Of a DNA stretch of 64,000 nucleotides, positions 36,441 through 39,448 are shown piece after piece. The notes under the pieces were generated by a model, which saw nothing but the letters and a program-made list of their open reading frames with translations, ran no database searches and was not told the origin of the DNA. The stretch's first letter is position 1. Every line of letters starts with the position of its first letter. A program made the translations under genes and the position numbers. The DNA lies in NCBI GenBank assembly GCA_035687145.1, contig DASRYM010000039.1:1219-65218 (forward strand), in the 5' to 3' direction. The DNA is from Candidatus Zixiibacteriota bacterium. Its GTDB lineage: Bacteria; Chloroflexota; Limnocylindria; QHBO01.

Positions 36441-37355
36441 TCAGCGACCGGCCGGCGGCCAACCGCCGGCCCGCCCCACCTTGCTGCCCACCTCCGGCTT
36501 GCCGAGCGCCTTCGCCGCGAAACGCGCGGCGGCCAGCAGCCGGTCCAGGTCCACGCCGTGACGCAGGCCCTGGCGGTCGAGCAGGTAGACGAGGTCCTCG
36601 GTGGCCAGGTTCCCGGCGGCGCCCGGGGCGTACGGCGAGCCACCGGTGCCTCCGGCCGCCGCGTCGAAGGCGGCCACACCCACGTCGAGGGCGGCCATCA
36701 CGTTGGCCAGCGCCGTCCCGCGCGTGTCGTGGAGGTGCAGCGCCACCACCTCCGGACCGACTCCAGCGGCGCCCAGCGCGTCGAGCACGCGCCGCACGTC
36801 GACCGGCGCCGCGACCCCGACGGTGTCCGAGATGGCCAGCTCGTCCACGCCCATGGCCAGCAGCCGCTCGCAGACGCTCACCACTGCCCGCGGGTCGACC
36901 TCCCCCTCGTAGGGGCAGCCGAAGGCGGTGCTCACGTAGGCGCGCAGCCACCAGCCCCGTCTCCGGGCCTCCTCGGCGATCGGCGTGAACTCGGCCAGCG
37001 ACTCGTCGATCCCCATCCCGATGTTGTGGCGCACGTACGACTCGGTGGCCGCGGTGAACAGGCAGATCGCATCGACTTCGGCCGCGATCGCGCGCTCCAG
37101 CCCGCGCGCGTTCGGCACCAGCACCGGGTAGCGGACGCCCGGGCGCCGTTCGAGGCGCGCCATGAGCCCGTCGGCATCGGCCAGGGCGGGGATGGCGCGC
37201 GGCGAGACGAAGGAGGTGGCCTCGATCTCGCGCAGGCCGGCATCGGCCAGCAGGCCGATCAGGGCCAGCTTGTCGTCGGTCGACAGGACCTGGCGCTCCG
37301 CCTGCAGGCCGTCGCGCGGCGCGACCTCGTAGATGCGCACGTCCAGCGCGGTCAT
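36441..37355 (-). CDS. hydroxymethylglutaryl-CoA lyase
   Basis: YEVAPRDGLQ, HLHDTRG and GGSPYAPGAAGN HMGL motifs. ATGA overlap with the MCC alpha stop. Confidence 0.85.
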   Translation of the reverse strand: MTALDVRIYEVAPRDGLQAERQVLSTDDKLALIGLLADAGLREIEATSFVSPRAIPALADADGLMARLERRPGVRYPVLVPNARGLERAIAAEVDAICLFTAATESYVRHNIGMGIDESLAEFTPIAEEARRRGWWLRAYVSTAFGCPYEGEVDPRAVVSVCERLLAMGVDELAISDTVGVAAPVDVRRVLDALGAAGVGPEVVALHLHDTRGTALANVMAALDVGVAAFDAAAGGTGGSPYAPGAAGNLATEDLVYLLDRQGLRHGVDLDRLLAAARFAAKALGKPEVGSKVGRAGGWPPAGR

Positions 37356-39448
37356 GGCCGGCCCGATACCTCCGCCAGGACGTCCCCGCGCTGCACCTGC
37401 TGGCCCTCCCGCACCGCGATGCGGCGCACCGTCCCGTGCAGCGGCGCTGCCACGGCGTGCTCCATCTTCATGGCCTCGATGACGATCACCGTCTCGTGCT
37501 CGTCCACCGAGGCACCCTCCTGGACGCGGACGGCGATGACCCGCCCGGGCATCGGCGCGGTCAGCACGGCCGAGCCGCCGTCCTGGGCCGCGGCGTGGCG
37601 CACCGCCTCCTCGACGCTGGGCGGCGGGGCCAGGTCGAACTCCAGCGACTGGCCCTCGACCGATACGAAGGCCGTGCCGCGTTCCACATCAACCGCGACC
37701 GGCCCATAGGCGCTCCACCCTCCTTCTGGCTGCGCGGAAATTGTTCCGATCATCCGAACACTCTGCGCGCGCTCGCCGACCCCCTGGGAGAGCTCGACCC
37801 GGCGCACCTGGTCGCCGTGGCGCACCCGGATCACGGGCGGCAGGTTCGGGCGCCAGCCGCCGCCCCACACCCCGGCGGGCAGTACCCCTGCCCCGCGCAG
37901 CGCCAGGGCCGCCGCGCGCCAGGCGGCCTCGTTCGGCTGCGGAGGATCGGGCAGCATGAGCGATTCGACGGTATCGGTCCGCACGTCGCCCTGCCGCATG
38001 GCCGGGTGGGCCAGCAGCCAGCGCAGGAAGCGCAGGTTGGTGCGCACCCCCAGCACCTCGGTGGCCTCCAGCGCCGTGCGGAGCCGGAGGAGGGCGTCGC
38101 GCCGGGTGGACCCGCGGGCGATGAGCTTGGCCAGCATCGGGTCGTAGCGGTCGGTGACCGTGTCGCCCTCCCGGATGCCGGCGTCGACCCGGACCCCATC
38201 GGGCCAGCGCAGATGCACGATGCGTCCCACGGCCGGCAAGAAGCCGGACTCGGGATCCTCGGCGTACAGCCGCGCCTCGATGGCGTGGCCGCGCCAGCGC
38301 ACGTCATCCTGCACGAGGTCCAGCGGCTCGCCGGCGGCGATGCGCAGCTGGTCGGCGACCAGATCCCGCCCGGTGACGGCCTCGGTCACCGGGTGCTCCA
38401 CCTGCAGGCGGGTGTTCATCTCCAGGAAGTGGAACGTCCCGTCATCGGCCAGCAGGAACTCGACGGTGCCGGCCCCCACGTAGCCCGCCGCCGCGGCGAC
38501 CCGCAGTGCGGCCTCGCCCATCCGCCGCCGAAGGTCGGCGGTCACCACCGGGCCGGGCGCCTCCTCCACGACTTTCTGGCGCCGCCGCTGGGCGGAGCAG
38601 TCGCGCTCCCCGAGGTGCACCCCCCGCCGATGGCGATCGAACAGGACCTGGACCTCCACGTGGCGCGGTCCATCCAGGAGCCGCTCCAGCACCAGGCGCT
38701 CGTCACCGAAGGCGCCGCGCGCCTCCCGGCGCGCGGCGGCCAGGGCCTCGGGCAAATCCTCCGCGCGCCGCACGGTGCGCATGCCCTTCCCGCCCCCGCC
38801 GCCGGCCGGCTTGACCAGCAGCGGGAAGCCGATGCGAGCGGCTTCCGCCAGCAGGCGCTGGTCCGACTGGTCCTCGCCGTCGTAGCCGGGGAGCACCGGC
38901 ACGTCGTGGGCCGCGGCCAGGCGACGCGCCGCCGCCTTGTCGCCCATGGCGGCGATGGCGCCGGGCGGCGGCCCGACCCAGACCAGGCCGGCGGCCTCCA
39001 CGGCCTCGGCGAAGCTCGGGTTCTCGGCCAGGAAGCCGTAGCCGGGGTGGACGGCATCCGCGCCCGCCGCCCGGGCGGCGGCCAGGATGGCATCGCCATC
39101 CAGGTAGCCGGGGACGCGGCGCACCTCGTCCACGTCGCGCGGCGGGACGTCGTCGGGTGCCTGGAGGGCGATGGAGCGGATGCCCAGGGCGCGTGCCGTG
39201 CGCCCCACGCGCGCCGCGATCTCTCCGCGGTTGGCGATGAGCAGGGTGTGGATGGGGCGGGCCGGCCACGGCCCGTGATCGGTCGCCTGCGCCGGCGCCA
39301 GCCCGGCCAGCCCGTCGCGCGGAATGCGCACTCGTCCCCCGACGCGCCGGGCCGGCAGGCGGCCCTGCGCGACCCAGCGCTGCACGGTCCGAACGGTCAC
39401 GCCGAGCCGGTCGGCAACCTGGCGCGGGGTCAGGTGCTCGTCGCCCAT
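37352..39448 (-). CDS. methylcrotonyl-CoA (acyl-CoA) carboxylase alpha subunit: biotin carboxylase plus BCCP, with an N-terminal excisionase/MerR-like HTH extension
   Basis: ATG at 39448. aa 1-45 LTPRQVADRLGVTVRTVQRWVAQGRLPARRVGGRVRI form an HTH_17-like domain. Then IHTLLIANRGEIA..., ATP-grasp and BC C-terminal domains, and a BCCP EAMKME biotin motif. No in-frame start between the HTH and BC parts. Contains an in-frame palindromic element insertion at 37741-37761. Confidence 0.8.
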   Translation of the reverse strand: MGDEHLTPRQVADRLGVTVRTVQRWVAQGRLPARRVGGRVRIPRDGLAGLAPAQATDHGPWPARPIHTLLIANRGEIAARVGRTARALGIRSIALQAPDDVPPRDVDEVRRVPGYLDGDAILAAARAAGADAVHPGYGFLAENPSFAEAVEAAGLVWVGPPPGAIAAMGDKAAARRLAAAHDVPVLPGYDGEDQSDQRLLAEAARIGFPLLVKPAGGGGGKGMRTVRRAEDLPEALAAARREARGAFGDERLVLERLLDGPRHVEVQVLFDRHRRGVHLGERDCSAQRRRQKVVEEAPGPVVTADLRRRMGEAALRVAAAAGYVGAGTVEFLLADDGTFHFLEMNTRLQVEHPVTEAVTGRDLVADQLRIAAGEPLDLVQDDVRWRGHAIEARLYAEDPESGFLPAVGRIVHLRWPDGVRVDAGIREGDTVTDRYDPMLAKLIARGSTRRDALLRLRTALEATEVLGVRTNLRFLRWLLAHPAMRQGDVRTDTVESLMLPDPPQPNEAAWRAAALALRGAGVLPAGVWGGGWRPNLPPVIRVRHGDQVRRVELSQGVGERAQSVRMIGTISAQPEGGWSAYGPVAVDVERGTAFVSVEGQSLEFDLAPPPSVEEAVRHAAAQDGGSAVLTAPMPGRVIAVRVQEGASVDEHETVIVIEAMKMEHAVAAPLHGTVRRIAVREGQQVQRGDVLAEVSGRP
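37741..37761. repeat. palindromic element copy (TTGTTCCGATCATCCGAACAC) inside the MCC alpha coding sequence, flanked by the 7-bp direct repeat CTGCGCG (37730-37736 and 37763-37769)
   Basis: The only intragenic copy. It sits in the BC-BCCP linker. Element plus one flank copy is 33 bp, i.e. in frame. Confidence 0.8.

Follow-up and report, generated by a model that had tools for sequence, protein, structure and literature searches.

What does a DNA-binding domain do on a catalytic subunit of a biotin-dependent carboxylase, and may it act on the very gene that encodes it? The question is raised by a 64,000-nucleotide stretch of a metagenome-assembled genome (MAG; GenBank assembly GCA_035687145.1, contig DASRYM010000039.1, positions 1,219 to 65,218), hereafter called the window. 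It carries mccA, a gene predicted to encode the alpha subunit of methylcrotonyl-CoA carboxylase (MCC) with a helix-turn-helix (HTH) domain at its N terminus. An initial annotation, made from the letters of the window, had described this fusion, had suggested that the HTH came from the leucine-catabolic regulator LiuR and had raised the idea of autoregulation. We find that the fusion is real, ancient and universal in one Chloroflexota lineage (Candidatus Limnocylindria and relatives). We also find that every fused gene has a near-invariant 15-nt element at its start, which is a new observation beyond the original fusion finding. Positions given here are those of the whole 64-kb window, and residue numbers are those of the 698-aa window protein.

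Results

The fused gene and its product

The features of mccA that the argument needs are as follows.

37352..39448, minus strand: mccA, HTH-fused MCC alpha subunit, 698 aa (open reading frame [ORF], translation, set of Pfam domains, match to 3u9s, HET6380308.1)
39308..39433, minus strand: N-terminal winged helix-turn-helix, residues 6-47, HTH_17/excisionase/BldC-like (PF12728, TIGR01764, AlphaFold2 [AF2] model, Foldseek)
39254..39307, minus strand: flexible linker between the HTH and the biotin carboxylase (BC) module, residues 48-65 (identity 0.23, low pLDDT)
37964..39253, minus strand: BC module, residues 66-495, with EMNTRLQVEH at residue 343 (PF00289, PF02786, PF02785)
37370..37564, minus strand: BCCP (biotinyl) domain, residues 629-693, with AMKM and the biotinyl-lysine K661 (PF00364, 61.7 bits)
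39449..39463, minus strand: 15-nt element TGCGACAATCGCGAC, abutting the start codon, candidate operator (alignment of 80 loci and the window)

The coordinates of the gene in the initial annotation stand, but the gene is actually on the minus strand, with its ATG at 39448..39446 and its stop codon at 37354..37352. The product is identical to the NCBI protein HET6380308.1 (698 aa; from a MAG contig of 119.8 kb). Pfam domains span residues 66-165 (Biotin_carb_N), 170-377 (CPSase_L_D2, ATP-grasp), 391-495 (Biotin_carb_C) and 629-693 (Biotin_lipoyl). An HTH_17/excisionase-type domain, recognised by both PF12728 and TIGR01764, is fused in frame to the BC subunit, as had been claimed, and the stretch of the ORF from the HTH to the BC module contains no stop codon. 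The accompanying statement that no in-frame start codon precedes the BC domain was only partly right: GTG occurs in frame at codons 17, 22 and 40, all within the HTH, and there is no in-frame start codon from codon 41 up to the BC domain. Upstream, the frame remains open as far as an ATG at 39583; the start position used here, M/V-x-D-E-x-L-T-P-R, is common to 111 of 119 homologues. An HTH-less isoform beginning at the GTG at codon 40 was considered and rejected, as residue 40 is V, M, L, A, T and others in the homologues, including residues with non-start codons, and is hence not conserved.

The best match in the Protein Data Bank (PDB) was the MCC alpha subunit of Pseudomonas aeruginosa (3u9s; 533 bits), aligned end to end over query residues 64-694; subunits of propionyl-CoA carboxylase (PCC) and acetyl-CoA carboxylase scored lower. 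No solved carboxylase chain among the PDB matches listed aligned to the HTH (residues 6-47), and the carboxylase alignments began at query residue 59 or later, except for 7wta (residue 34). Canonical MCC alpha subunits (P. aeruginosa 3u9s, human 8j4z and others) have the same domain order and a partner beta subunit but no segment that aligns to the HTH. A659, M660, K661 and M662 as well as EMNTRLQVEH were invariant in an alignment of 69 sequences, and the carboxylase part of the fusion looks catalytically intact, with a full BC-BT-BCCP arrangement. Homology and gene context (see below) identify the fused enzyme as MCC alpha, with predicted carboxylase activity on 3-methylcrotonyl-CoA.

Recurrence of the fusion

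The initial annotation had named recurrence of the architecture in related genomes as a check and a sequencing-error frameshift as one finding that would refute it. A search with the full-length protein returned the identical protein and 119 further clusters (120 best clusters; 64-76% identity, 662-712 aa). PF12728 and BC domains were found together in 119 of these 120; the remaining one, P0133, was called short on a 2-kb contig, and even its sequence begins within the HTH ('VRIARAAL'). When an alignment of the HTH alone was scanned against one genome per GTDB species, 143 genomes were hit; the best 80 loci (L001-L080) were taken, and in 80 of 80 the HTH runs in frame into the BC motif ANRGE. 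Together with L081, which is on the same contig as L029, and the window, these loci make up the 82 entries referred to below (81 without the duplicate). A profile of the HTH alone gave 283 matches below 1e-10 among 1.84 billion representative proteins; eight of ten long single-HTH proteins checked also carry BC/ATP-grasp domains, and the other high scorers were tandem-HTH proteins. The architecture therefore recurs, and the recurrence of the in-frame fusion refutes a sequencing-error frameshift in the window.

Carriers of the fusion are nearly all labelled Chloroflexota, Candidatus Limnocylindria or 'uncultured Chloroflexia'. The source MAG of the window is labelled 'candidate division Zixibacteria', whereas the window has 71-74% GC, Limnocylindria/Chloroflexota synteny and 60-90% protein identity; this contig has probably been put in the wrong bin or given the wrong label. 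Similarly odd labels occur at a few related loci (Steroidobacteraceae, Methylomirabilota, Angelobacter and Pleomorphomonadaceae). A second, divergent clade of HTH-BC fusions is represented by four metagenome contigs (L092, L101, L130 and L179), with an HTH reading '...ELSPSEAARRIGATTRSVQRWIALGKLP...'; the full-length comparison made for this clade, with L092, gave 51% identity to the window protein.

Some irregular entries were also seen. In seven loci from long-read MFD assemblies (L012, L027, L032, L045, L057, L069 and L076) apparent frameshifts within the BC part split the fused gene into ORFs of 230-549 aa. The many database proteins of 150-300 aa with 'HTH+BC_N' come from contig ends and from frameshifts downstream of the junction in long-read assemblies, the latter on very long contigs. 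Two loci from one MAG (L025 and L035) look like strain duplicates with identical synteny rather than paralogues.

Fold, conservation and class of the HTH

Residues 6-47 matched PF12728 (HTH_17) with 50.5 bits against a gathering score of 27, and TIGR01764 ('excise', excisionase family DNA-binding) with 48.7-52.9 bits against a cut-off of 28.8. AF2 predicted a beta-alpha-alpha-beta-beta-alpha winged helix (strands 5-6, 34-36 and 39-43; helices 8-15, 19-28 and 44-47) with pLDDT of 81-94 (87 overall), followed by a linker in which residues 51-58 fall below 50. Mean pairwise identity among 69 sequences was highest in the HTH (0.81), followed by the BC and BCCP domains (0.70-0.77), the BT domain (0.53) and the linker (0.23), whose length varies from 16 to 30 aa in the same homologues.

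Entropies at codon positions 1, 2 and 3 of the HTH were 0.40, 0.24 and 1.21 bits in the 81 loci, and pairs of codons showed synonymous differences in 38.5% versus non-synonymous differences in 17.5%. Because synonymous changes exceed non-synonymous ones and third-position entropy is high, the HTH segment is translated and under purifying selection at the protein level. Taken with the identities, these measures show stronger purifying selection on the HTH than on the catalytic domains. The most constrained residues form two groups, the recognition helix V17 T18 x R20 T21 V22 Q23 R24 W25 (VT.RTVQRW) and the wing R35 V G x R39 x R41 (R-V-G-x-R-x-R), both of which are invariant or nearly so. R20, R24, R35, R39, R41 and R44, which occupy typical DNA-contact positions, are likewise invariant or nearly so, and the domain as a whole has a pI of 12 and 10 Arg.

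By sequence, the nearest solved proteins were Xis of mycobacteriophage Pukovnik, RacA, lambda gpNu1 and BldC. By structure, Foldseek gave Pukovnik Xis (TM 0.85), DNA-bound BldC (0.81-0.84), RacA-DNA, RdfS, Rv2175c and the N-terminal domains of SoxR/MerR. The derivation from LiuR, a MerR-type protein, finds no support in these comparisons: MerR profiles remained below their cut-offs (PF00376, 26.0 versus 28.2; PF13411, 19.0 versus 21.6), the closest structures are Xis, BldC and RacA, and in the AF2 model and the alignment no MerR coiled coil or effector domain follows the HTH, only a disordered linker and then the BC module. The BldC model NF033787 also stayed below its cut-off (32.1 bits versus 77). 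A true excisionase, i.e., a recombination directionality factor, was rejected because no recombinase or integrase context was seen in the loci. Judged by profiles and predicted fold, the fused HTH is a minimal excisionase/BldC-type winged helix that does not demonstrably come from LiuR.

A near-invariant 15-nt element at the start of mccA

In the alignment of 80 loci and the window, the start codon is preceded by the consensus (C)TGCGACAATCGCGAC, followed by ATG or GTG, and the sequences are unrelated beyond ~16 nt. One copy with no more than two mismatches lies at the gene start in 82 of 82 entries; among the 81 loci the element is exact in 70, has one mismatch in 6 and has two in 5. Further copies at this threshold are sporadic (7 loci). 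Entropy per position is 0-0.4 bits within the element and 1.6-2.0 bits just upstream. As adjacent synonymous sites are highly variable (1.21 bits at third positions), the invariance of the element reflects selection. The 64-kb window contains a single exact copy, and its two 3-mismatch matches equal the number expected from shuffles.

The element follows the fused gene. In every locus with a 1-2.7 kb insertion after the upstream enoyl-CoA hydratase (ECH) gene, the window included, it is still attached to the start of mccA. None of the three unfused BC genes that were examined (L082, L083 and L084) has it upstream; L082 and L084 share the ECH-BC synteny without an HTH, and L083 belongs to a geranyl-CoA/Atu-type cluster. 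A scan of metagenome contigs for the exact 15-mer, which finds exact copies only, gave at least 122 matches. Among the matches listed, 108 are due to chance, on contigs with GC of 0.38-0.73, the high-GC ones inside long open frames, while 14 precede an HTH-BC ORF, and four of these represent the divergent clade. Exact copies before such divergent fusions are not expected by chance. Two members of this clade (L101 and L179) share 'GGATAGTT' ~20 nt upstream of the element, which might be an alternative -10.

The initial annotation had connected the HTH to palindromes in liu promoters. This connection is not borne out, as the 180-bp region upstream of mccA contains no significant palindrome and the element is neither a symmetric palindrome nor an inverted repeat of the LiuR type. 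It does contain GCGACA twice at a 9-nt offset (GCGACAATC and then GCGACRTG), which is suggestive only. Rfam gave no match for the element. The codons for VSRSSL at ~42-47 of the fused gene (GTGTCGCGATCGTCGCT) are a 2-mismatch reverse complement of the element in four loci only (L053, L067, L070 and L046); this match, absent from the window and from most loci, is probably a codon coincidence.

The element as a promoter and the mccB control

We infer from its letters that the element may be read as an extended -10 (TGC-GACAAT), i.e., TGn and a hexamer whose second base is A and whose sixth is T, plus a 6-nt discriminator, CGCGAC, before RTG of a leaderless mRNA. This interpretation rests on general knowledge of bacterial promoters. 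An extended -10 with a 6-nt discriminator would place +1 on the first base (A or G) of the start codon. The leaderless reading fits the lack of a Shine-Dalgarno sequence at mccA, the TAnnnT boxes elsewhere and the [GC]ATAATCG box of mccB, the gene for the MCC beta subunit. The gene for 3-hydroxy-3-methylglutaryl-CoA lyase (HMGL), downstream of mccA, has GGAGG upstream. On L081 (22 kb), and in the window generally, many genes lack a Shine-Dalgarno sequence and carry a TAnnnT hexamer 6-10 nt ahead of the start codon, while others have a clear GGAGG, which suggests that leaderless or near-leaderless transcripts may be common in the Limnocylindria-type lineage.

The mccB promoter serves as a control for how much conservation an ordinary promoter shows in these genomes. 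In 54 loci its box, [GC]ATAATCG, lies 6-10 nt from the ATG, and only ~7 nt are kept, at variable spacing. In contrast, the mccA element keeps all 15 nt, including C-13, G-12, C-10 and the whole discriminator, which are not normally specified by RNA polymerase. Because it is so much more constrained than the mccB -10 box, something beyond RNA polymerase appears to read the element.

In one subgroup of loci the mccB box lies within a perfect palindrome, GTGCGGCGAT-A-ATCGCCGCAC, and the core of this site, GCGATAATCGC, is one base off the core of the mccA element, GCGACAATCGC (GCGA(T/C)AATCGC shared). All loci together keep only [GC]ATAATCG, so that the mccB site looks like a -10 box; in the subgroup the palindrome might be a second binding site.

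Gene neighbourhood

The genes around mccA bear on the identity of the enzyme and on what would be co-regulated with it.

44547..46145, minus strand: mccB, MCC carboxyltransferase (CT) beta subunit, with a CATAAT box at 46155..46160 (PF01039, 3u9r)
42082..42882, minus strand: ECH, methylglutaconyl-CoA hydratase-like (PF00378)
39628..42018, plus strand: M36 (fungalysin-type) metallopeptidase with FTP propeptide and PA domain (PF02128, PF02225, PF07504)
36441..37355, minus strand: HMGL, liuE-like (PF00682; NF004283, 368 bits versus a cut-off of 246)

In the PDB search the mccB product scored 786 bits with MCC beta (3u9r) versus 468 with the beta subunit of geranyl-CoA carboxylase and ~280 with that of PCC. 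The start of the HMGL gene overlaps the stop of mccA (ATGA), and HMGL is syntenic in 70 of 82 loci. The best NCBIfam models for ECH were crotonase and gamma-carboxygeranoyl-CoA hydratase, both below their cut-offs. In most relatives ECH is directly 5' of mccA, with a gap of 0-40 nt between its stop codon and the element. The conserved order is CT ... SseB-ECH-[element]-mccA-HMGL-nucleoside hydrolase, which is complete in 58 of 82 loci, most of the others being cut by contig or locus ends.

About nine loci, including the window, have 1-2.7 kb inserted between ECH and mccA, with differing inserts, so that the junction looks like a hot spot for insertions. In the window the insert is the M36 gene, a divergent, lineage-specific insertion that is not at this position in most syntenic loci; the metallopeptidase is not part of the mccA system. 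No integrase or mobile element was seen next to mccA, where all loci have genes of the liu pathway and of housekeeping functions, and a search of the cluster for a separate MerR gene showed none.

Two further parts of the cluster were noted. A gene of the SseB family (PF07179; 42882..43736, minus strand; 8382..9188 in L081) sits in the liu-like cluster in nearly all loci, overlapping ECH from upstream, and its product has no obvious role in leucine catabolism. Past HMGL (31833..36419, minus strand; 12929..17604 in L081) is a block with an inosine-uridine nucleoside hydrolase and an ECF-type transporter (S-like component, CbiQ and two ABC ATPases) that is syntenic with mccA in most loci; the two ATPases form a single 854-aa ORF in the window.

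Discussion

The near-invariant 15-nt element at the start of every fused gene makes autoregulation more plausible than it was when only the fusion was known. Our preferred model, for which we regard the case as evenly balanced, is that the fused protein is a trigger enzyme whose HTH binds the element and autoregulates mccA. An intact MCC alpha subunit would carry an excisionase/BldC-type HTH on a flexible tether of 16-30 aa, and this HTH would bind the 15-nt element at the start of its own gene, possibly with two copies arranged head to tail, as in BldC, on the repeat with the 9-nt offset. Assembly of the alpha6beta6 holoenzyme would cluster the tethered HTHs and may thereby favour cooperative binding. 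As the element overlaps -10/+1, occupancy would block RNA polymerase and repress mccA, and as the start of HMGL overlaps the stop of mccA, HMGL would be repressed with it. Such negative autoregulation might serve to adjust the amount of alpha subunit to demand or to the beta subunit, which is transcribed separately, and expression may be coupled to substrate, assembly state or biotinylation. A more ambitious form of the model, which we propose tentatively and consider doubtful, is that the MCC holoenzyme is a metabolite- or assembly-sensing transcription factor. In this form the HTHs of an alpha trimer would bind as a BldC-style multimer to a single operator over the leaderless mccA promoter, modulated by substrate, biotinylation or the beta subunit, and MCC would then be the first biotin-dependent carboxylase shown to regulate transcription directly.

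A number of observations weigh against autoregulation through the element. All carriers of the fusion are uncultured MAGs. Neither the HTH nor the element varies to any real extent, which leaves no covariation to link them. The element is itself a plausible promoter; RNA polymerase must account for some of its conservation, and another, unlinked factor could explain the rest. A simple scan for a sigma-70 promoter with two hexamers and for a terminator found nothing, leaving the extended -10 reading only, and the strict geometry with +1 on the A of the ATG is not universal, as the divergent clade has the exact 15-mer with a 2-5 nt gap to the ATG. No second site was found at mccB or other liu genes, either within +/-6 kb of the loci (~0.9 Mb) or in the window; hence, if the model is right, HTH-MCC alpha would be a regulator with a single target. 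The metagenome scan is biased by ascertainment to exact copies and could not reveal extra members of a regulon.

The strongest competing explanation is that the element is a promoter and start-site module read by RNA polymerase alone and that the HTH acts elsewhere, i.e., on other sites, in tethering MCC to the nucleoid or on an unsampled regulon. The spacing TGc-GACAAT-N6-RTG does fit the geometry of an extended -10, many neighbouring genes have TAnnnT 6-10 nt before their starts, the mccB -10 box is conserved too and RacA-type relatives can bind DNA with low specificity. We nevertheless think this unlikely. mccB keeps just 7 nt at variable spacing, whereas the free positions of the mccA element are fixed across proteins that are 51-76% identical; the element occurs one-to-one with the HTH and is missing in unfused relatives; and the divergent clade shifts the spacing to the ATG by 2-5 nt and keeps the sequence exact, which indicates that the sequence matters and not start geometry alone. 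It is also conceivable, although improbable in our view, that control is exerted on RNA, with the HTH binding the element in the SseB-ECH-mccA transcript or in a short leader and repressing translation of mccA. There is precedent for a carboxylase subunit that binds its own mRNA (PMC2831308), and in most loci the element sits in a gap of 15-40 nt after ECH that lacks a terminator, so the element is probably also transcribed from upstream. However, all ligand-bound structural neighbours of the HTH hold double-stranded DNA, the element, for which Rfam has no entry, forms at best a 4-bp hairpin (GCGA-CAA-UCGC) and a leaderless mRNA would not contain it at all.

The two remaining explanations dispense with nucleic-acid binding or with the fusion itself. 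MCCs form higher-order assemblies (PMC12776079), and the HTH may have become a structural or protein-protein module (for assembly, filament formation or docking) that has lost nucleic-acid binding. This seems very improbable, because conservation falls precisely on arginines of the recognition helix and the wing, which are typical of DNA contact, in a domain of pI 12, the domain is held on a disordered tether of variable length rather than docked, and the co-conserved DNA element would be left unexplained. That the fusion is an artefact of a frameshift, an assembly error or a mis-called or downstream start is scarcely credible. The GTG codons at 17, 22 and 40, the last of them after a G-rich stretch, and the truncated ORFs of some long-read assemblies might suggest it, but 119 of 120 clusters and 80 of 80 species loci, obtained independently by various projects and technologies, have the fusion in frame. 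In addition, purifying selection acts on the HTH as protein, a start-capable codon is not kept at residue 40, and the frameshifts of the truncated ORFs sit in the BC part and not at the junction.

Comparison with known systems puts the trigger-enzyme model in context. Trigger enzymes with a fused DNA-binding domain include BirA, PutA, NadR and archaeal RbkR (PMC5397151; for BirA also PMC3199775). Like these, the mccA product combines an intact metabolic enzyme and an N-terminal (winged) HTH in one chain and has a candidate operator at a promoter of the same pathway; BirA, a biotin ligase and repressor, also belongs to the world of biotin enzymes. The mccA fusion differs from them in its enzyme, a subunit of an alpha6beta6 carboxylase, in its excisionase/BldC-type HTH and in its sole candidate target, the start region of the gene itself; it is known from sequence alone. 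The nearest precedent among carboxylases is the E. coli carboxyltransferase subunit AccD, whose zinc finger binds nucleic acid and for which autoregulation of the subunits coupled to substrate has been proposed (PMC2831308). In both, a module of a nucleic-acid-binding type is carried by a catalytic subunit of a biotin-dependent carboxylase, but AccD is a CT beta rather than a BC alpha subunit, has a Zn ribbon rather than a winged HTH and has coding regions of mRNA rather than promoter-proximal DNA as its proposed target. The in vivo relevance of the AccD mechanism has been disputed.

The initial annotation knew of no DNA-binding domain on the catalytic subunit of an acyl-CoA carboxylase. This overlooks both AccD and existing database entries: the fused proteins are already present in hundreds of public entries, machine-named 'excisionase family DNA binding protein' or 'helix-turn-helix domain-containing protein'. 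Although biotin-dependent carboxylases are an intensively studied group, our full-text literature searches returned no paper on an HTH attached to a biotin carboxylase or to the alpha subunit of an acyl-CoA carboxylase. The 'helix-turn-helix' of a Legionella MCC preprint is an unrelated structural motif of the beta subunit.

The HTH shares with BldC, Xis, RdfS and RacA (6ama, 4j2n and 5i44) the minimal beta-alpha-alpha-beta-beta fold without a MerR coiled coil (TM 0.77-0.85). These relatives are small, stand-alone proteins, whereas the HTH described here is tethered to an enzyme of ~630 aa and has no recombinase partner. BldC protomers each bind a 9-bp direct-repeat unit, head to tail (PMC5859096); its consensus, AATTnnnnC, differs from the mccA element. 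LiuR of Proteobacteria controls the same pathway (MCC, hydratase and HMG-CoA lyase) through a winged HTH of the same broad MerR-like superfamily, but it is a separate, dimeric coiled-coil protein that binds palindromes, and neither a coiled coil nor a palindrome is found with the mccA fusion.

In summary, fusion of an HTH to MCC alpha is the rule for a whole, abundant lineage of uncultured soil and freshwater bacteria, in which current pipeline names hide a core leucine-catabolic enzyme. The 45-aa HTH and the 15-bp site form a defined candidate protein-DNA pair, which makes the idea of autoregulation directly testable. If the idea is true, the carboxylase would join the short list of trigger enzymes, and it would show how a large oligomeric enzyme can acquire a winged helix of the minimal excisionase/BldC type. 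It would also give rare access to promoter architecture (leaderless, extended -10) and to gene regulation in uncultured Chloroflexota.

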